64,000 bases of DNA, taken from NCBI GenBank assembly GCA_963716565.1, contig OY970318.1:128830-192829 (forward strand), read 5' to 3'. The DNA is from an uncultured Candidatus Saccharibacteria bacterium. GTDB taxonomy: Bacteria; Patescibacteriota; Saccharimonadia; Saccharimonadales; CAIOMD01. The position numbers and the translations under genes were made by a program. Each line of letters opens with the position of its first letter. Within the stretch, counting starts at the first letter, position 1. Shown here one piece after another: positions 4,446 through 12,755 of the stretch. The notes beneath the pieces were generated by a model. The model was not told the DNA's origin, made no database searches, and saw only the letters and a list, made by a program, of their open reading frames with translations.

Positions 4446-5960
4446 TTAAGGTGAATATACCGTTATGGTTAGATAGTTATCTTTGTCTCGCAGCTCATTA
4501 GCGGTGTAGGTTTTTGGCAACTCATCTTTCCAGCGGGAATCTTTATCGATGGCTAAAAAGGTGGCATCATCATTCAGGGTGCACGAAGGCGATAAATCAT
4601 TCTTCTGGCTGTAATATGCTATTTGTAAGGGTTTCTGGTTTGTCAAATAATCAATAGTCCACTTGGTATGAAACGTGCTACCTAACACGCAGTACTTATT
4701 TTGTGGATTTTCTAAAATATACTCAGCTGCCTCGCTGGCATTGTAAAAATAAGCTTCCTTGGTTTTATCTGCGACGGCCCATCTTTGAAAATAGCCTGTA
4801 TAGCTAGAATAGGCTGTAAAGAGGTATATAAGGCAGACTGCTGATGGTATCAAAATCTTGAGCATTCGTTGTTTGGCTTTGATATTTAACAGCAGGTTAA
4901 AACCGTAGGCTGTTATGGTGACCAAAAATGGCAAAGCCCCTATGTTTCTTAAATAATGCGGGGCATTATGGTAACCGATAAAGCCGGGCACTAACATTAG
5001 CAACAGCCAGCTGGCGCAAAAAAGAACTTTTTTATCTCGTTTTTTGTATGCCCATACCAAGGCGCCTACAAAAAATGGTGCCACCACGTAAGACAGAGCC
5101 GGTTGGGCAAAGGTATTGTGCCGAGGCTCACCATCGCCTTTTATAAAGAACATAGCTGCCGTTTTGGCAGAAGTAACCGCTACGGCTCTGGGTACAGAAG
5201 GGGCATTTAAGATGCTAATGTCTCCACGAGTTGCAAAATAATCGGGGTGTCTTAGATATGTAGTAGCTATTGGAACCAACACAATCAAGGTAGTTAGCGA
5301 AGCAAGAACTATTGCCTTACGAATTTTTGGACGCTTAAAGAATGCCCATGCGACAAACATCAAAACAAACAAAAAGTAGAATCTGTAAGAGGTGTAAGTA
5401 TAAGCGCCTAGGCCAAAGAATAATCCTGCTAACATTGGCCAAAGTACTAGGCGGGGCTTTTTGTATGCTATACCAGCCATCCATACGGATAGACAAACAA
5501 TTAGCGGAAATAAGTTAGCCCTAAAACCGTCCCGGCTTACGACAATGGCCCATGGCAAGAGGGCATATAACAGGGCCGCTAAAAAGCCGATTCTCTTGCC
5601 AAAAAAATGCTTTACGGCGCAATATAAAACGATTGTTGTAATAATGCCAATGATTGCTGGCGCGATACGTAAGCCAAAAATTGTATTACCAAAGATTAGT
5701 ACCCCGATTGATTGTAAATAAAAAAACAGCGCTTCGCGGTAGCCATTAAGAGGATAAATTGTCTGCCAGTTACCCTTAAATATATTTTGTAAAATATCCA
5801 GCCCATTAGCGGCCTCGTCGCCATATAGACCTGGGGGTGTGGTGTTAAGGTGGTATAACCTAAAAAAACCACTTACAAGCAATAGGACGAGGATAGCAAT
5901 AATTTCTATTTTATGTTTTTTAATATAGCTGTACATCTTTTGCACCTGACGCCCCTCCAA
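4446..5960 (-). CDS. ArnT/GT39-like membrane glycosyltransferase
   Basis: 504-aa polytopic membrane protein with the N-terminal pattern LYHLNTTPPGLYGDEAANG typical of the GT39/GT83 (PMT_2) family. The start is uncertain (5960, 5945 or 5936). Confidence 0.65.
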   Translation of the reverse strand: MEGRQVQKMYSYIKKHKIEIIAILVLLLVSGFFRLYHLNTTPPGLYGDEAANGLDILQNIFKGNWQTIYPLNGYREALFFYLQSIGVLIFGNTIFGLRIAPAIIGIITTIVLYCAVKHFFGKRIGFLAALLYALLPWAIVVSRDGFRANLFPLIVCLSVWMAGIAYKKPRLVLWPMLAGLFFGLGAYTYTSYRFYFLFVLMFVAWAFFKRPKIRKAIVLASLTTLIVLVPIATTYLRHPDYFATRGDISILNAPSVPRAVAVTSAKTAAMFFIKGDGEPRHNTFAQPALSYVVAPFFVGALVWAYKKRDKKVLFCASWLLLMLVPGFIGYHNAPHYLRNIGALPFLVTITAYGFNLLLNIKAKQRMLKILIPSAVCLIYLFTAYSSYTGYFQRWAVADKTKEAYFYNASEAAEYILENPQNKYCVLGSTFHTKWTIDYLTNQKPLQIAYYSQKNDLSPSCTLNDDATFLAIDKDSRWKDELPKTYTANELRDKDNYLTITVYSP

Positions 5961-6046
5961 TATGTAATAACTTTAGCATCTTTCATAAAATATATTAATT
6001 TGTCATTAAGCGGTTGGCATTCAACATTCTAAGCAATACAGGTATA

Positions 6047-7096: not shown

Positions 7097-9591
7097 AAAT
7101 ATCGCTTAATTGGGTGAAGGAATTTACTTCGGTAAAAGTACCAAATGATGAGTTGTTGGCTAAAATTGGCGCCCAACTTGGGGCCGTAGAAGAAGTAACC
7201 GATCTGGGCAAAGCTTACAAAGGCATCGTGGTTGTGAAGGTTGTAAAAGTAAGCGAACATTCCAATGCCGACAAGCTTCATGTTTGCTTGGTTGATGATG
7301 GTGGAGTTAACAAAGATGTTAAGCGCGACGGGCAAGGCTTTGTGCAAGTTGTTTGTGGAGCGCCAAATGTGGCCGAGGGTCAGTTAGTTGCCTGGATTCC
7401 ACCTGGCTCAATTGTGCCATCTACCCATAAGTATTCCGAGCAGATGGTTATTGATTCTCGCGAGGTGCGCGGCGTAATAAGCTATGGCATGTTGGCCAGC
7501 GCCAAAGAACTGGCACTGGGCAGCGACCATAACGGCATTATGGTTATAGAAGACGACGTTAAGCCCGGTACATCGCTTATAGAGCACTATCGACTTAATG
7601 ATTTAATAATCGATATCGAAAATAAGATGTTCACTCATAGGCCAGATTGTTTTGGGATCTTGGGTGTAGCCCGCGAAATCGCCGGTATTCAAAATATTGA
7701 ATTCAAAAGTCCGACCCATTACCTAAAAGCCGATTTGCCTACTAACCCTAAAGAAACCACTTTGCCAATTGCTATTAAAAATGAATTGCCAGATTTATGC
7801 CCGCGCTTTATGGCAGTGGCTATGAGCGACATCAAAATTAAACCCAGCCCAGCCAAACTACAGGCTTATTTAACGCGTTTGGGTGTTAGGCCAGTAAATA
7901 ACGTGGTAGATATTACTAACTATGTAATGTTGCTAACTGGCCAACCGCTTCATGCTTACGACTACGATAAAGTTTTAGCAATGGATAAGGGTGCTAAAGT
8001 GGCCACGATAGGTGTTCGCTACCCTAAAAAAGACGAAGAGTTGTTACTGTTAAACGGCAAAAAAATTAAACCGCACGAAAAGGCCATGCTTATAACTTCT
8101 GAAACTACCGCTTTGGGCTTAGCTGGCGTTATGGGTGGCGGTGATACCGAAGTAAGCGATAGTACCAAAAATATTTTATTAGAATGCGCCGTTTTTGATT
8201 TATATAGCATCCGTAAAACTTCTATGCAAAACGGTGTATTTACCGATGCCGTAACTCGTTACAGCAAAGGCCAAAGCCCATTGCAGTGCCCTTGTGTGTT
8301 GGCTCACACCGTTGCAGTATTACAAGAATTGGCCGAAGCCAAAGTCGCTAGCCCAGTTATTGACGATGACCATTCCAAGGCCATTCCGGCCGTATCTGTA
8401 AAAGCTGATTTTATTAATCAAAGGCTAGGTTCTGGCCTAGAGCCAGCCGAACTTGCCCAATTATTAAAAAATGTGGAATTTAACGTTACGGTTAATGGCA
8501 ATAATTTAACCGTACAACCACCGTTTTGGCGCATGGATATTGCCATCGCCGAAGATGTTGTAGAAGAAATTGGTCGCTTGTATGGTTACGATAAGCTGCC
8601 ACAAGAATTGCCAGCCCGTACTCTAAAACCGGCTGAACGCAATGACATGTTTGAGCTTAAAGCGGCTGCCAGGAAAATCCTTAGCGCCGCCGGTGCCAAC
8701 GAAGTTCTAACTTATAGCTTCGTGCACGGTAATACCCTAAAAAAAGCTGGTCAAGATACCAATAAGGCCCTTGCTTTGGGTAATGCTTTGAGCCCAGATT
8801 TGCAGTATTACCGCCTTAGCTTACTGCCAAGCTTGCTAGAAAAAGTACACTCTAACATCAAAGCCGGTTTTGATAATTTTGCCTTGTTCGAAATGAACAA
8901 AGTGCACATTAAAGACTGGCTAGACGCTGAACATTTGCCCAAAGAAGAAAATCGCCTAGGCTTCGTTTATGTTGATAGCAATCAGCCAAAAGACCAATCA
9001 GCATATTATTGGGCATTAAATTATGTTGCGAATCTTTTAGGTCCAATCCGCATTAGTGCTGAACTTATTGATTTGCCAAGTAAAGCCGAGCTGGCCATTA
9101 ATGAACAATTGGTGGCGCCTTTTGCCAAAGGACGTACAGCTGTTATTGTCGCAGATAGTGGTGAGCTATTGGGTGCAATGGGCGAATTTAAGCCCCAAGT
9201 CGCTAAAGAATTTAAATTGCCACCTTTTTGTAGTGGTTTTGAGCTAGATTTAGATGTGTTGCTAAAACATCAAGAAAAAGTTTCTGATTACCGGTCTTTA
9301 GCCAAATACCCCAAAGTTGAGCAAGACATTACTCTGCAGGTTGATGCCGACTTGGCGTATATAAAAGTAATGCAGAATTTAGCGGATGCCATTTGGAAAC
9401 TGACGTGTGACCTTCGAAGAATAACAGTAACCGATATCTACCAGCCAGATGACGACAAAGCCCACAAAAATGTTACGTTTCACGTAACTGCCAGTTCCGA
9501 TGGAAAGACCCTAAAAGCCGAGGAAGTAAACGACTGGCTAGATAAAGCAGCCGAAAACTTAGGCAAACAAATTGGCGCTAAGCGCATCTAG
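7093..9591 (+). CDS. pheT: phenylalanine--tRNA ligase beta subunit
   Basis: 832 aa with N-terminal MKISLNWVKEF, tRNA-binding, B3/4, B5 and FDX-ACB-like regions. Confidence 0.9.
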   Translation: MKISLNWVKEFTSVKVPNDELLAKIGAQLGAVEEVTDLGKAYKGIVVVKVVKVSEHSNADKLHVCLVDDGGVNKDVKRDGQGFVQVVCGAPNVAEGQLVAWIPPGSIVPSTHKYSEQMVIDSREVRGVISYGMLASAKELALGSDHNGIMVIEDDVKPGTSLIEHYRLNDLIIDIENKMFTHRPDCFGILGVAREIAGIQNIEFKSPTHYLKADLPTNPKETTLPIAIKNELPDLCPRFMAVAMSDIKIKPSPAKLQAYLTRLGVRPVNNVVDITNYVMLLTGQPLHAYDYDKVLAMDKGAKVATIGVRYPKKDEELLLLNGKKIKPHEKAMLITSETTALGLAGVMGGGDTEVSDSTKNILLECAVFDLYSIRKTSMQNGVFTDAVTRYSKGQSPLQCPCVLAHTVAVLQELAEAKVASPVIDDDHSKAIPAVSVKADFINQRLGSGLEPAELAQLLKNVEFNVTVNGNNLTVQPPFWRMDIAIAEDVVEEIGRLYGYDKLPQELPARTLKPAERNDMFELKAAARKILSAAGANEVLTYSFVHGNTLKKAGQDTNKALALGNALSPDLQYYRLSLLPSLLEKVHSNIKAGFDNFALFEMNKVHIKDWLDAEHLPKEENRLGFVYVDSNQPKDQSAYYWALNYVANLLGPIRISAELIDLPSKAELAINEQLVAPFAKGRTAVIVADSGELLGAMGEFKPQVAKEFKLPPFCSGFELDLDVLLKHQEKVSDYRSLAKYPKVEQDITLQVDADLAYIKVMQNLADAIWKLTCDLRRITVTDIYQPDDDKAHKNVTFHVTASSDGKTLKAEEVNDWLDKAAENLGKQIGAKRI

Positions 9592-9593
9592 CG

Positions 9594-9622
9594 TTGTAAT
9601 TTACGCAAAATAAGTTTATAAT
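9594..9622 (+). promoter_or_regulatory. sigma70-type promoter (TTGTAA-17-TATAAT)
   Basis: Perfect -10 and 17-nt spacer, 3 nt after the pheT stop. It would drive the two small ORFs and possibly the tRNA cluster. Confidence 0.6.
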
Positions 9623-9729
9623 AGCCGTTCTGGAATTGCCCCCAAACAGCACGACTGTATTGTGTGAGGCAGGTCCTTTCACAATCAGGTGTTGTTGATT
9701 AGAAACCTACGAGGCCTGGAGGCCATAAT

Positions 9730-9897
9730 ATGTTCGAGGCTGTGCTTGCGTGTGTGATCTTGTTGGTGCAAGTAGTCGTACTGGTATACGTAGCTGTTCT
9801 TATGATCAGCTCGTCTAAGTTGCATTGTAGAATGATGCAGCGACCTGAGCAGTTTAGCCAAGATGGTGGACTATCAGAACCCAAAAGGAAGTGGTGA
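9730..9897 (+). CDS. small hydrophobic protein, 55 aa (below the ORF-track cutoff)
   Basis: My translation is MFEAVLACVILLVQVVVLVYVAVLMISSSKLHCRMMQRPEQFSQDGGLSEPKRKW. SD ggagg lies 9 nt upstream. One TM helix and a charged tail. Confidence 0.4.
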   Translation: MFEAVLACVILLVQVVVLVYVAVLMISSSKLHCRMMQRPEQFSQDGGLSEPKRKW

Positions 9898-9900
9898 GTG

Positions 9901-10050
9901 ATGAAACGGCAGCCAACTTGTCAGCACAAAGCCCAAGAGCCAGTGTATTCGCGCTTGTGGCGAAAACGCAAGATCGTTAGGTACCGATGTATCAATTGTG
10001 GCCAGAAGGTACGTGTTCGTAAGATCAGGCGCTATCGCTGCCAGACATAA
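9901..10050 (+). CDS. small basic Cys-containing (zinc-ribbon-like) protein, 49 aa
   Basis: My translation is MKRQPTCQHKAQEPVYSRLWRKRKIVRYRCINCGQKVRVRKIRRYRCQT. It starts 3 nt after the previous stop, preceded by SD aaggaag. It has a CxH...CxxC...C pattern. Confidence 0.4.
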   Translation: MKRQPTCQHKAQEPVYSRLWRKRKIVRYRCINCGQKVRVRKIRRYRCQT

Positions 10051-10059
10051 TTGGCAAGG

Positions 10060-10133
10060 GGCCGTATAGCTCAGTGGCAGAGCGGTCGGGGTAAGACTCG
10101 ATGTCGTCAGCGGTTCGAGCCCGCTTACGGCCA
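10060..10133 (+). tRNA. tRNA-like gene with irregular anticodon arm (identity undetermined)
   Basis: The acceptor (GGCCGUA/UACGGCC), D arm (GCUC-AGUGGCA-GAGC) and T arm (AGCGG-UUCGAGC-CCGCU) are canonical. The anticodon arm folds only as 6 bp with a 6-nt loop (GUAAGA), or as 5 bp with an 8-nt loop (GGUAAGAC). Confidence 0.5.
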
Positions 10134-10159
10134 CCTATGTGGCGGTTGTTTGTTTCGAA

Positions 10160-10232
10160 TGGCGCGTAGCTCAGCCCGGGAGAGCACCCCCTTACAGGGG
10201 GGAGGTCGATGGTTCAAACCCATCCGTGCCCA
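10160..10232 (+). tRNA. tRNA-Val(UAC)-like, with a register anomaly in the anticodon stem
   Basis: The D and T arms are canonical. The sequence GAGC-A-CCCCC-UUACA-GGGGGG-AGGUC resembles tRNA-Val (loop CUUACAG), but has 5 C against 6 G and a U1:C72 mismatch. Confidence 0.6.
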
Positions 10233-10244
10233 TTTTGTAACGTG

Positions 10245-10341
10245 GTGTCTGAAGCTCAGTATTGGCAGCGAGCAACCCAATCATATCCAATTAAAGGAGT
10301 GGAGGGGAAGGAGTTTGCGGGTTCAAGTCCCGCCAGACACA
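10245..10341 (+). tRNA. tRNA-like element or disrupted tRNA (97 nt) lacking a foldable anticodon arm
   Basis: Perfect 7-bp acceptor (GUGUCUG/CAGACAC), a D stem GCUC/GAGC and a T arm GCGGG-UUCAAGU-CCCGC. The 43-nt centre reads ACCCA-AUCAUAU followed by a purine-rich UAAAGGAGUGGAGGGGAAGGAGUUU, and I found no 5-bp stem with a 7-nt loop in it. Confidence 0.35.
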
Positions 10342-10548
10342 CTTTGGTGTTGGTTGTCAGATAAGGTTGAACCAATCTGGCGCCAAACACACCAGCACCA
10401 ACTCGTGGCAGTGACTTCACTAGCCAGCGCGTACTTCCAAGGTACGTAGGCGTTCCTAGCGCCGACCTCAAAGAGGGGGTTGCGCACACAGCGAATCCTA
10501 CCATTCCTATCGTTCGCAACCTTAGCTTACTAGTGATCACTGCCCCCG

Positions 10549-10621
10549 CTTCCTGTAGCTCAGTTGGCAGAGCGCCGCCTTTCTACGGCGGAAGTCGCTG
10601 GTTCGAGTCCAGCCAGGGAGA
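10549..10621 (+). tRNA. tRNA-Arg (anticodon UCU)
   Basis: Fully canonical cloverleaf: acceptor CUUCCUG/CAGGGAG, anticodon arm CCGCC-UUUCUAC-GGCGG, variable loop AAGUC, T arm GCUGG-UUCGAGU-CCAGC. Confidence 0.9.
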
Positions 10622-10912
10622 CCTCGGCGCGTGGGAGACCCCTTTCCTCCGAACAACACGTGTCGAATGCTGCTATGGGTGGCCAGCCCAATAGCAGCGG
10701 CTTCTTCAAGTCCGAGGTGGGCGCTGTTCTGATCTTTGTCCACGGTACAATGTGACAATCCAGACAGCGCCCCTTTGGGCTCAATCATACAACACCTGAT
10801 CTTTACCCTAAATCACGAACTTCGCGGTTTGAGGCAAAGAATCAATTTTTACTACATAAAATTATTTGCATAAATAAAAACATTGCTATAATTAGGTCCG
10901 AGAGAGGGATTT

Positions 10913-11428
10913 ATGCAAACATCAAAAACCCAGAGGATTGTATCGTTAATGTTGGCGTTAATTATCGCCGGCTCAGCTGTTGGCATTTTAGTTTATTATG
11001 TGGCTGCCAATAAACAGCAAGCTGCCGAAGAAGAACAGATTTCCGATATCCAATCCTTAATCGACACAGAGACGAGGTATATGGAAAATTATCAACCCCA
11101 AGCCAGTGTTAGCGCTTTGCAAACTATTGATTTAACAACTGGTACAGGCGAAGCTGTTCAGCCTGGTGCAACAGTAACAGTTAATTACACAGGTGCTTTA
11201 GCGGCCACTGGCGTAATTTTTGAAAGCTCCTACGACAGCGGGCAACCAGCAACTTTTCCGCTTGATGGAGTAATTGCTGGCTGGACGCAGGGCATCCCCG
11301 GCATGCAGGTTGGTGGTAAGCGTCGCTTAATTATTCCCGCTAGTTTAGCTTATGGCGAAAGGGCATCAGAAAAGATACCCGCGAACTCCGATTTAGTGTT
11401 TGATGTGGAGCTAGTATCAATCAACTAA
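10913..11428 (+). CDS. FKBP-type peptidyl-prolyl cis-trans isomerase, membrane-anchored
   Basis: FKBP_C signature (VNYTGALAATGVIFESSYDSGQPATFPLDGVIAGWTQGIPGMQVGGKRRLIIP...LVFDVELVSI) plus an N-terminal TM helix. Confidence 0.85.
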   Translation: MQTSKTQRIVSLMLALIIAGSAVGILVYYVAANKQQAAEEEQISDIQSLIDTETRYMENYQPQASVSALQTIDLTTGTGEAVQPGATVTVNYTGALAATGVIFESSYDSGQPATFPLDGVIAGWTQGIPGMQVGGKRRLIIPASLAYGERASEKIPANSDLVFDVELVSIN

Positions 11429-11495
11429 AACGCTACCTGTAGCGTTTGCAAAATAAAAGAAAGCACTATAAAATAATAAAAAGGAAAAGCAAAAA

Positions 11496-11744
11496 ATGGC
11501 CAAAAATATCACTATCTACACCACCAACAGTTGCGCGTACTGCGCAATGGTAAAAAAGTGGCTGACCCTAAAAGGTTATAGCTACGACGAAGTAAATATA
11601 GAAGAACATCCCGAGCGCGGCCAAGAAGCCATTGATGCCAGTGGGCAGATGACTGTGCCAATCACAATTGTCACTAAAGCCGACGATAGCCAAGTAGTTG
11701 TTGTTGGCTATAACCTGTCAAGATTAGCCCCAGCGGTGGCTTAA
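11496..11744 (+). CDS. glutaredoxin/NrdH-like redoxin
   Basis: 82 aa with a CAYC active-site motif in a thioredoxin-fold context (ITIYTTNSCAYCAMVKKWL). Adjacent to trxB. Confidence 0.75.
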   Translation: MAKNITIYTTNSCAYCAMVKKWLTLKGYSYDEVNIEEHPERGQEAIDASGQMTVPITIVTKADDSQVVVVGYNLSRLAPAVA

Positions 11745-11747
11745 AAC

Positions 11748-12755
11748 ATGTCTTCCGTTGCTGTTAAAAACCCGAACAAGCCAAAGGCTAAAGTTCAGCC
11801 CGGGCAATTTGATAAGAATAAAAAGATGCACGATTTGATAATTATTGGCTCCGGCCCAGCGGCTCTAGCGACGGCTATTTATACTGCCCGCGAAGACATT
11901 GAAACCCTTGTTTTAGAAAAAGGCATTTTAGGCGGAGTGCCAGCAACAGTAGACAAAATAGAAAATTACCCCGGCTTTCCCCAGGGCCTGCCCGGCCTAG
12001 ATTTGGCCACAAAGTTTCAAGAACAGGCCGAAAGGTTTGGCGTAAAGTTTGAGCTTACCGAGGCACTAGGCGTAGAATCCAGCGGCAGTTGTATAACCGT
12101 AAGAACCAGCGACGGCAGCTATGCCACTAAAGCGTTGTTAATCGCCAGCGGCTGCGATAACAAAAAATTAGGCATTCCTGGCGAAAAAGAATATTTTGCT
12201 AAGGGCGTACACTATTGTGCTACCTGTGATGGCCCCTTGTATCGCGATAAAAACCTACTTGTAATAGGCGGTGGCAACGCAGCGGTCCAAGAGGCCTTGT
12301 TTTTGACCACTTATGCCAAGCATGTAGATTTATTAGTGCGTAGTACCATTAAGGCTACCGATATCTTAGTCCAGCAATTATCCAAGAATAAAAAGATTAC
12401 CGTGCATTTGCACACTACTGCTAACGAAATTATTGGCGATGGTCAAACTGTAGCTAAAGTCGTTGGCACGGATTTAGCTACCAACAAAAAAGTGCAGTTT
12501 AGCACCGATGGAGTGTTTATATTTGCTGGGCAATTCCCCAATACCGCTTTTTTGGCCGGAACTGGCATTATTTTTGACGAGGTTGGCTATATTCAGACCG
12601 ATCAAAAACTCCAAACTGCTATAAAGGGTATATTTGCGGCCGGCGATGTACGCAGTGGTGCAACCAGGCAGATTGCTTGTGCTGCTGGCGAAGGCGCAGC
12701 AGTGGCCTTTAGTATTCGTGAATATTTGCGCCACGAAGCGGCTCCTTGTTACTAA
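11748..12755 (+). CDS. trxB: thioredoxin-disulfide reductase
   Basis: FAD motif IIIGSGPAALATAIYTAR, redox-active CATCDG and NAD(P) motif VIGGGNAAVQEA. Confidence 0.9.
   Translation: MSSVAVKNPNKPKAKVQPGQFDKNKKMHDLIIIGSGPAALATAIYTAREDIETLVLEKGILGGVPATVDKIENYPGFPQGLPGLDLATKFQEQAERFGVKFELTEALGVESSGSCITVRTSDGSYATKALLIASGCDNKKLGIPGEKEYFAKGVHYCATCDGPLYRDKNLLVIGGGNAAVQEALFLTTYAKHVDLLVRSTIKATDILVQQLSKNKKITVHLHTTANEIIGDGQTVAKVVGTDLATNKKVQFSTDGVFIFAGQFPNTAFLAGTGIIFDEVGYIQTDQKLQTAIKGIFAAGDVRSGATRQIACAAGEGAAVAFSIREYLRHEAAPCY

Follow-up and report, generated by a model that had tools for sequence, protein, structure and literature searches.

Two transfer RNA (tRNA) genes downstream of pheT in a 64-kilobase (kb) stretch of DNA from an uncultured Candidatus Saccharibacteria bacterium (hereafter the window) raise the question of what a tRNA fold is for when its anticodon arm is out of register. 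For these genes, here called w1 (10060-10133) and w2 (10160-10232), an initial annotation described textbook acceptor, D and T arms together with anticodon loops of unusual size, and it offered assembly errors, gene decay or genuinely unusual tRNAs as explanations, with a hint at frameshift suppression. Our leading, if tentative, answer is that w1 and w2 are genuine tRNA-shaped modules that would not be built to read codons, that they are two of four in a dedicated transcription unit, and that they may have a processing or stabilising role there. What we say about structure is much firmer than what we say about function.

Both genes were detected by ARAGORN as well as by the Rfam tRNA model RF00005 (gathering score 29). 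ARAGORN called three tRNA genes in the window, two of them (10060-10135 and 10160-10232) as 'tRNA-???' and the third (10549-10623) as tRNA-Arg(UCU), and gave the first two the two-base anticodons 'aa' and 'ac', respectively, which correspond to loops of 6 nucleotides (nt). The Rfam model found four genes (Table 1) and passed over the anticodon loop in both w1 and w2. As a baseline we used 60 phage loci, obtained from an IMG/VR scan with the 3'-end pattern of one group of the modules (group 3, below). Only 3 of their ~508 ARAGORN tRNAs (0.6%) were 'tRNA-???', and the odd loops of w1 and w2 are therefore more than chance.

The anatomy given in the initial annotation was borne out by the sequence. 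In w1 (GGCCGTA TA GCTC AGTGGCA GAGC G GTCGG-GGTAAGAC-TCGAT GTCGTC AGCGG TTCGAGC CCGCT TACGGCC A) the acceptor, D and T arms are perfect, the variable region has 6 nt, and the 18-nt anticodon arm can close either an 8-nt loop with 5 base pairs (bp) or, by a further G:C pair, the 6-nt loop GUAAGA with 6 bp. The minimum-energy fold takes the second form. When read with 8 nt, the loop is GGUAAGAC, which has U at position 3 and whose first G and last C pair. In w2 (TGGCGCG TA GCTC AGCCCGGGA GAGC A CCCCC-TTACAG-GGGGG AGGTC GATGG TTCAAAC CCATC CGTGCCC A), which at 73 nt is one below a canonical tRNA, 5 C (10187-10191) stand against 6 G (10197-10202) in a 16-nt arm, and U1:C72 is unpaired. A 7-nt loop can form in w2 only if nucleotide 26 is given up, there is no 8-nt reading, and the minimum-energy fold has 6 bp and the 3-nt loop UAC. 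Both genes have the 7-bp acceptor stem, the 4-bp D stem with G18G19 (GG in both D loops), the 5-bp T stem and the T54-T55-C56-R57-A58 loop of a canonical tRNA (TTCGAGC in w1 and TTCAAAC in w2), and neither has the arm of a canonical decoder, with 5 bp, a 7-nt loop, U33, a purine at 37, nucleotide 26 and a variable region of 4-5 nt. The open reading frame (ORF) at 10051-10449, whose translation had been used to confirm the nucleotide counts, does exist (132 amino acids (aa), TTG start), but it overlaps three tRNA-like genes, has no Pfam match and is almost certainly a false gene call. Almost certainly false, too, is a 230-aa minus-strand gene call over the tRNA-like genes of a relative (L082 8577-9269).

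Two further tRNA-like genes, w3 (10245-10341) and w4 (10549-10621), as well as the transcription unit that encloses them all, had been overlooked. The four genes lie within 560 nt, and three of them (w1, w2 and w3) have arms of 18, 16 and 33 nt. Relative to the 17-position anticodon arm of the Rfam model w3 has a 37-nt insertion; its arm is built in three tiers (CCC/GGG, TCAT/GTGG and TCC/GGA) below the loop AAUUAAA, and its D loop has 12 nt. The same three-tier architecture is present in a module of a relative (L084b). A short intron in w3 was considered and rejected, as no removal of an insert from its sequence leaves a canonical 5-bp stem with a 7-nt loop. w4 is canonical in appearance, and in BLAST of the spacers its orthology reaches into the flanks.

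Few parts of a decoding tRNA are conserved as strongly as its anticodon loop. We compared the spacer downstream of pheT in contigs of relatives that were chosen through a PheT protein search (L081-L085, L187 and L188). L085 ends at pheT, with nothing readable downstream, and the window together with the six other contigs forms the seven close loci, where 13 tRNA-shaped modules were examined. In every close relative the spacer carries tRNA-like genes, never in the same set. Three orthologous groups (groups 2, 3 and 4; Table 1) were defined by core identities and by BLAST of the spacers. Group 3 has expanded arms in all members, and no orthologue of w1 was found in the close relatives by BLAST of the spacers. 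Modules were also searched for outside ARAGORN and Rfam with a simple pairing-rule scanner; in the close loci it recovers every one of the 12 well-formed modules but not the degenerate L083b, and coding DNA yields many false positives.

The constraint on the modules was the reverse of that on a decoding tRNA. When the 16 acceptor, D and T stem pairs of the 13 modules were scored as 208 cells, 202 (97%) were paired, and the differences between orthologues were mostly double compensatory or G:U changes. In contrast, 10 of the 13 anticodon arms are non-canonical, and arm lengths are 16, 16, 17, 17, 17, 18, 19, 20, 21, 21, 33, 34 and 40 nt. Outside the arm the orthologues are 57-81% identical (67-81% without L083b), whereas arm identity is 29-53% in 13 of the 15 orthologue pairs, and within each group the arm is the least conserved part. 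The conservation of anticodon and loop expected of a decoder was not found among the orthologues. In group 4 the anticodon is UCU in w4, AAC in L082 and AAU in L084, where the module also has A33 and is without nucleotide 26, and the L083 member has a 6-nt loop. The top half of the cloverleaf and the elbow are thus maintained while the anticodon arm drifts freely. Because the stems are kept by compensation, while the arms vary from 16 to 40 nt and orthologues carry different anticodons, the modules are most likely non-decoding. Of the options that the initial annotation had named, 'genuinely unusual tRNAs' comes closest, although not in the sense of unusual decoders.

The alternative that survives best is that the modules are decaying tRNA pseudogenes, duplicated or captured into a recombination-prone hypervariable region, with the arm disabled first since a mis-decoding tRNA is harmful. 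As such decay would have it, each relative has its own set of modules, and turnover inside the unit is fast. L081 has fragments only: w1 and most of w2 are lost, a 66-nt mini cloverleaf remains, and the Rfam tRNA model has no match at an expectation value (E) below 1. In some modules G53:C61 or the acceptor stem is impaired (U53:C61 in L082b, A53-U61 in L084c and a weak acceptor stem in L083b). The modules are also dispensable for the role of the conserved frame described below, because L081 has fragments only and most distant frames are without a module. However, uniform erosion should strike all helices, and only 6 of 208 stem cells are unpaired as compared with 10 of 13 non-canonical arms. 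Orthologues from genomes with 72-89% PheT identity (possibly 57% for one group) share 67-81% core identity (L083b excepted), with compensatory changes, and align between relatives while the flanking cargo does not. The three-tier arm of w3 is conserved in L084b as well. Loss of pairing over all helices and conservation no better than that of the flanks, as expected of neutral pseudogenes, were thus not observed in the modules, and we consider simple decay unlikely, if still a serious competitor.

A kept top half and elbow together with a free arm would also be expected of tRNA-like RNAs that function outside decoding, either as amino-acid donors, charged by synthetases that are blind to the anticodon, or as decoys or sponges that draw off tRNA-binding or tRNA-cleaving proteins. 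When its sequence is read, L188a carries a G3:U70 pair, which is the alanine identity element, but this pair is not kept in the putative orthologues w2 and L084a. Possible non-canonical functions of tRNAs from arrays have been mentioned (PMC8421152). No tRNA-dependent transferase or toxin gene is present in the conserved neighbourhood, and a decoy for an anticodon nuclease should mimic a specific loop, whereas the loops here are not conserved. We find such a function improbable.

All four modules lie in one GC-rich (rich in guanine and cytosine) transcription unit of ~1.2 kb (~9594-10850), which would be transcribed as a single RNA. Its GC content is 53%, as compared with 44% in the rest of the window, and across the seven close loci the values are 49-53% for the units and 38-44% for their surroundings. 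The promoter starts 3 nt past the stop codon of pheT (9589-9591). It is conserved in the alignment of L081-L084, and equivalent hexamers are found upstream of the frame in distant loci. The leader that follows is 81-90% identical in L081-L083, where the interior of the unit is unalignable, and an equivalent leader hairpin is seen in the whole-unit folds of L187 and L188. The helix that joins leader and trailer, and that closes the unit, ranks first among the inverted repeats of the region in all five closest loci, being the longest in the window, and it was recovered by the minimum-energy whole-unit fold in all seven close loci.

The interior is occupied by further hairpin domains. One of them, H2, stops 4 nt short of w4, and a long closed hairpin of other sequence takes the same position in L082, L083 and L084. 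The positions of the hairpin domains recur in the relatives, but their sequences do not. Between L187 and L188, 48 predicted pairs are in common, and compensatory changes are seen in 8 of these. The trailer hairpin and T run, 96% identical in L081, probably form the 3' end of the unit. The copy in the window was not called in the terminator scan, because its T run is not adjacent to the stem; at the homologous position L188 and distant loci have a clear terminator-like hairpin (CCGTTCCC...GGGAACGG) followed by Ts. The next gene, for an FKBP isomerase, has its own promoter (10865-10892). In Rfam searches nothing but tRNA was matched in any unit.

Two small ORFs near the 5' end of the unit are possibly real cargo, as judged from their translations. 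The one for a hydrophobic peptide has no significant Pfam or NCBIfam match, is absent from L082-L084 and is not conserved in relatives. Its presence together with paired transcript ends recalls type I toxin messenger RNAs (mRNAs). For the basic peptide no family match was obtained, nor any detectable similarity to the 44-aa Cys ORF that occupies this place in L081. In 8 of ~20 units there are small ORFs (40-66 aa) of the Cys-rich or zinc-ribbon kind, often with a perfect AAGGAGGTGAT ribosome-binding site. When compared by eye, the translations from L026 and L034 look homologous (MPRxG..., 7 Cys). The ORFs of L187 and L188 are similar to the DnaJ CxxCxGxG finger and to anti-TRAP, and only the Anti-TRAP Pfam match of L187 reaches the cut-off.

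A search for the same layout in distant Saccharimonadales was prompted by GC-rich stretches after pheT in these genomes. The frame was found downstream of pheT in at least 20 Saccharimonadales loci, the distant ones being L010, L026, L028, L031, L033, L034, L045, L048, L050, L055, L005, L052 and L064; in the last three it lies ~1.9 kb further downstream. An apparent frame in L016 was rejected as a chance match in coding sequence. In the distant loci the frame consists of a promoter, a leader hairpin (GGTTGAGTC...GATTCC), the linker GYACTTTG, a left arm beginning (G)ACAG..., a right arm ending ...CTGT(C), and the hairpin CCGTTCCC...GGGAACGG with its Ts. The closing helix is 10-15 bp long and encloses a GC-rich, hypervariable interior of 350-1100 nt; between distant loci the interiors are unalignable while the frame can be aligned. 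Among the short units are those of L033 (382 nt) and L064 (353 nt). Covariation in the helix was analyzed over 20 loci (and also in a seven-locus version), with slid registers and 500 shuffles as controls. In the true register 86% of cells are paired, as compared with 27-42% in slid registers, and 12 of 15 helix pairs change on both sides (59 cells). The covariation score was 0.497 vs. 0.200 in shuffles, none of which reached 0.497, and several of the exceptions are G:U pairs. Modules are present in a few of these frames, namely a 94-nt module with a 40-nt arm in L045, a canonical-shaped module with the anticodon AUC in L050, and a poor candidate in L052.

Such covariation cannot separate a helix in RNA from a repeat in DNA. 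The locus could then be a DNA-level cassette or invertible segment, bounded by inverted repeats and with the tRNA-like genes as incidental cargo, and such an element would look like what is seen in many genomes, where a perfect 10-15-bp inverted repeat surrounds a hypervariable stretch and the chromosomal site is fixed. Yet the conserved promoter lies just upstream of the left arm and the hairpin with its T run just downstream of the right arm, as for one RNA, and several of the helix exceptions are G:T, a combination that remains paired in RNA. In every locus the modules and ORFs have the orientation of pheT, with no inversion seen, and the neighbourhood has no recombinase gene. We give a DNA element little credence.

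Less credible still are assembly indels in G/C homopolymers, by which w1 and w2 would in truth be a tRNA with the 7-nt loop GUAAGAC and a canonical tRNA-Val(UAC). Both anomalies do fall in runs (GGGG at 10088-10091, and C5 against G6 at 10187-10202), one extra C would turn w2 into a 74-nt gene with a 5-bp stem and the 7-nt loop CUUACAG, and the source, a single 799-kb contig, may point to a long-read assembly. Against this, ~89% of the window lies inside intact ORFs of at least 100 aa, which hold ~41 long homopolymers (~20 G/C runs of at least 5 bases and 21 A/T runs of at least 7), and no split or frameshifted genes were seen in the window. In related modules that come from independent short-read assemblies the arms measure 19-40 nt, beyond what homopolymer miscounts would give. 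Even a 'repaired' w1 keeps its A34 anticodon, a pairable G32:C38 and the 6-nt variable region, and a 'repaired' w2 keeps U1:C72 and a pairable C32:G38. This explanation is possible for w1 and w2 only. Finally, expanded anticodon loops are a classic mark of frameshift suppressors, but that these genes are real decoders, either a +1 suppressor with an 8-nt loop, as the possible 8-nt reading of w1 had hinted, or a -1 shifter with a 6-nt loop, is hardly believable, as neither w1 nor w2 has the 8-nt loop with U33 at loop position 2, four-base anticodon and 3' purine of a +1 suppressor (U is at position 3 in w1, and G:C closes its loop to 6 nt in the minimum-energy fold), w1 is without an orthologue and no loop is conserved in any group, most sister arms cannot present an anticodon (7-bp stems with 5-nt loops, or 33-40 nt), and no frameshifted genes needing suppression were seen in the window.

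Table 1. Features of the pheT-FKBP spacer in the window and of related loci. Positions without a locus name refer to the window; w, tRNA-shaped module of the window.
Feature	Position	Strand	Evidence and details
Module w1	10060-10133	+	ARAGORN tRNA-???; Rfam 45.3 bits; 16/16 stem pairs
Module w2	10160-10232	+	ARAGORN tRNA-???; Rfam 44.9 bits; 15/16 stem pairs
Module w3, 97 nt	10245-10341	+	Rfam 34.1 bits; missed by ARAGORN; fold z-score -3.08
Module w4, canonical-looking tRNA-Arg(UCU), 5-bp stem, 7-nt loop	10549-10621	+	ARAGORN; Rfam 66.8 bits
Sigma-70-type promoter, TTGTAA-17-nt spacer-TATAAT	9594-9622	+	Promoter scan, 10/12 matches
Conserved 5' leader hairpin	9627-9683	+	GGAATTGCC can pair with GGCAGGTCC; then linker UUUCACA
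Closing helix, 5' strand ATCAGGTGTTGT	9684-9695	+	Pairs with 10789-10800, 12/12 complementary
Small ORF, 55 aa, hydrophobic single-pass peptide	9730-9897	+	Translation; GGAGG upstream; just inside closing helix
Small ORF, 50 aa, very basic, CxH...CxxC	9898-10050	+	Translation
Hairpin GCCACCTATGTGGC with T-rich tail, weak-terminator-like	10130-10143	+	Terminator scan; overlaps 3' end of w1
Hairpin domain H1	10344-10401	+	-24.9 kcal/mol; z-score -4.33
Multi-branched domain H2, closed by GGCAGTGA/TCACTGCC	10407-10544	+	-60.6 kcal/mol; z-score -7.05; 0/200 shuffles as stable
Three stable hairpin domains	10624-10666, 10669-10698, 10709-10781	+	Whole-unit fold; z-score -3.58 for 10622-10770
Closing helix, 3' strand ACAACACCTGAT	10789-10800	+	Inverted repeat, whole-unit fold and covariation
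Two-tier trailer hairpin CTTTACC...GGCAAAG (10801-10839) and T run (10846-10850)	10801-10850	+	Read from sequence
Cys-rich ORFs inside the frame	L026 7238-7393; L034 7113-7265; L188 9025-9147; L187 7425-7625; L031 and L045 units; window 9898-10050; L081 8632-8766
Module group 2	w2; L084a (4591-4667); probably L188a (8651-8747)		Arms 16, 20, 40 nt; plus 3' fragment in L081
Module group 3	w3; L084b (4681-4770); L082a (8604-8679); L083a (2921-2996)		Arms 33, 34, 19, 21 nt
Module group 4	w4; L082b; L084c; L083b		Arms: three of 17 nt, one of 16 nt

Judged from its genes, the window is part of a Saccharibacteria (TM7) bacterial chromosome and not of a phage. PheT is 49-56% identical to that of Saccharimonadales (TM7, Patescibacteria) genome assemblies, and the protein search gave closer relatives with 100%, 89% (L081), 82%, ~72% (three), 60% and 57% identity. 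Around the cluster lie housekeeping genes, for PheS, PheT, the FKBP isomerase, thioredoxin reductase, a fasciclin protein, an H+-pyrophosphatase, GAPDH and TypA/BipA, and phage origin was ruled out by these neighbours and by the lack of a megablast match to phage records for 9000-12000. The order pheS-pheT-spacer-FKBP, with a spacer of 650-1320 nt, is common to all close loci except L085, where the contig ends. In the window pheS and pheT overlap; in L082 the gene for a 23S ribosomal RNA (rRNA) intervening-sequence protein (PF05635; 5535-5936) is inserted between them, and in L081 two ORFs without family match (5376-6004).

Searches with w1 and w2 gave no usable distant match, and their arms had no exact match in IMG/VR. 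In JGI metagenomes neither the leader pattern nor the trailer pattern had a match (0 each), and the IMG/VR scan with the group 3 3'-end pattern returned ordinary phage tRNAs only. Among these, ARAGORN called tRNA-Lys, tRNA-His and tRNA-Thr genes of 85-91 nt (e.g. L107 3316-3602, L113 2179-2465, and L092 351-440 and 581-670), which is too long for the isotype and suggests insertions of 10-17 nt. The phage 'tRNA-???' calls were L088 1894-1969 ('cctt'), L100 12685-12756 and L134 605-682. Between the unit and the FKBP promoter, L084 (5161-5249) and L187 (7792-7900) have long imperfect hairpins of GGTAATAGG/CCTATTACC-like repeats, and the one in L187 hit the Rfam model of a plant microRNA precursor below threshold (36.9 bits), a spurious match. 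A LOOT RNA match (RF03000, 63.2 bits, above the gathering score) lies ~2.3 kb downstream of pheT on the minus strand of L061 (8889-9016), from a distant Saccharibacteria genome, and is apparently unrelated to the frame.

How could non-decoding modules with a processing or stabilising role work? Transcription would start at the promoter directly after pheT, the 5' leader would fold as a hairpin, and its last 12 nt would pair with the trailer and so close the transcript into a loop, with the trailer hairpin as terminator. Inside, the unit would carry a cargo that varies among relatives, with one to four modules, very stable hairpin domains rich in GC and, in some units, small Cys-rich ORFs. Selection may keep those parts of the cloverleaf that are read by ribonuclease (RNase) P, RNase Z and the CCA-adding enzyme, that is, the acceptor/T-arm stack and the elbow of D loop and T loop, and leave the anticodon arm free in length and sequence. 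The modules could thereby act as built-in processing or stabilising handles, which would cut the closed transcript into defined pieces or cap the pieces, in analogy to mascRNA for MALAT1 and to tRNA 'punctuation' in mitochondria.

Several points weigh against this reading. As regards expression, processing and aminoacylation it rests on sequence and predicted folds, and an inverted repeat at the DNA level would be just as likely to give the covariation seen in the closing helix. In L081, the relative nearest to the window, w1 and most of w2 are gone, the frame is without a module in most distant loci, and the defects at normally invariant positions in L082b, L084c and L083b fit partial decay. 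The anomalies of w1 and w2 are both in homopolymer runs. Moreover, the tRNA set was read for the 64-kb window, and a non-decoding role would presuppose canonical isoacceptors elsewhere in the genome.

In terms of mechanism the nearest analogues would be the tRNA-like modules of MALAT1 and NEAT1 (mascRNA and menRNA), the tRNA-microRNA transcripts of murine gammaherpesvirus 68 (MHV68) and mitochondrial punctuation. In these systems the features for RNase P and RNase Z, and not those for decoding, are kept within a longer transcript, often with hairpins following, and the modules studied here share with mascRNA a kept acceptor/T stack and D/T elbow and an unconstrained anticodon arm. A leader-trailer interaction is reported to take part in 3'-end maturation of MALAT1 (PMC8457004, PMC4337559). 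All these systems are eukaryotic, viral or organellar, whereas the present locus is on a bacterial chromosome, where cleavage is predicted only.

By architecture the closest analogue would be GOLLD RNA, which sometimes carries tRNAs in a variable linker (PMC12286853). GOLLD and ROOL are likewise large, highly structured non-coding RNAs that are found near tRNA islands in bacteria and phages. In the present locus, however, only the frame of leader hairpin, closing helix and trailer hairpin is conserved, the site is chromosomal, beside pheT and not in a prophage, and the embedded tRNAs have non-decoding arms. The Rfam models of GOLLD and ROOL had no match in the window at the gathering threshold, none over 9500-11000 at E up to 5, and none in L083, L084, L187 and L188 at E up to 1.

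Extra tRNA genes in a cluster also bring to mind the long tRNA arrays, e.g. the trn operon of Anabaena. An array is one operon of extra tRNA genes, including pseudogenes, and has been suggested to have roles outside translation; it can comprise as many as 43 genes, which cover most isotypes, and 23 of 26 tRNAs of the Anabaena array were detected and charged (PMC8421152, PMC4758250). In contrast, the units described here have 1-4 modules, mostly unable to decode, at a fixed and vertically inherited site within a conserved frame. They fall short of the at least 20 genes of one published definition and lack the many isotypes and the mobile element or plasmid of an array, and no mobility genes were found between or around the pheT-FKBP site.

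End-to-end pairing of a transcript, as in the closing helix, is found in the fold-back inhibition of hok and in the processing stems of rRNA operons. Like type I toxin mRNAs, some units have small hydrophobic or Cys-rich ORFs inside, but no antisense RNA was identified here, the ORFs are absent from many units, and the interiors of 350-1100 nt are mostly non-coding structured RNA. Non-decoding RNAs with tRNA-like D and T arms are represented in bacteria by Bacillus cereus tRNA-Other. Another such RNA is the Y RNA-like YrlA (PMC4201824), in which an arm in place of the anticodon stem has the open ends, whereas here they lie on the acceptor stem, as in a true tRNA. The YrlA model (RF02553) reached 16.4 bits over 9500-11000 (E = 3.7), as compared with its gathering score of 69.

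We know of no bacterial chromosomal case of several tRNA-like modules in a helix-closed transcript. More boldly, and with less assurance than for our reading of w1 and w2, we propose that the Saccharimonadales frame downstream of pheT may be an undescribed RNA locus that displays a fast-changing structured interior, into which lineages would repeatedly have built tRNA-shaped non-decoding modules, w1 and w2 among them, and small Cys-rich ORFs; this would be the first instance of bacterial chromosomal tRNA shapes as parts of a larger RNA. That the framed locus is in itself a new class is a realistic possibility.

If true, routine annotation mislabels such modules, for which ARAGORN calls tRNA-???, Asn(AUU), Val(AAC), Ile(AAU), Phe(AAA) and Asp(AUC), and tRNA counts in Patescibacteria would be inflated, with possible false codon reassignments or falsely inferred A34 decoding. 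It would also mean that bacteria reuse the tRNA fold as a structural or processing part of a larger RNA, and that a conserved and unannotated structured RNA locus is present in a major group of ultra-small episymbionts in which RNA biology has hardly been studied. Some Saccharibacteria are now in co-culture, which makes the idea directly testable, provided that the strain carries the frame.

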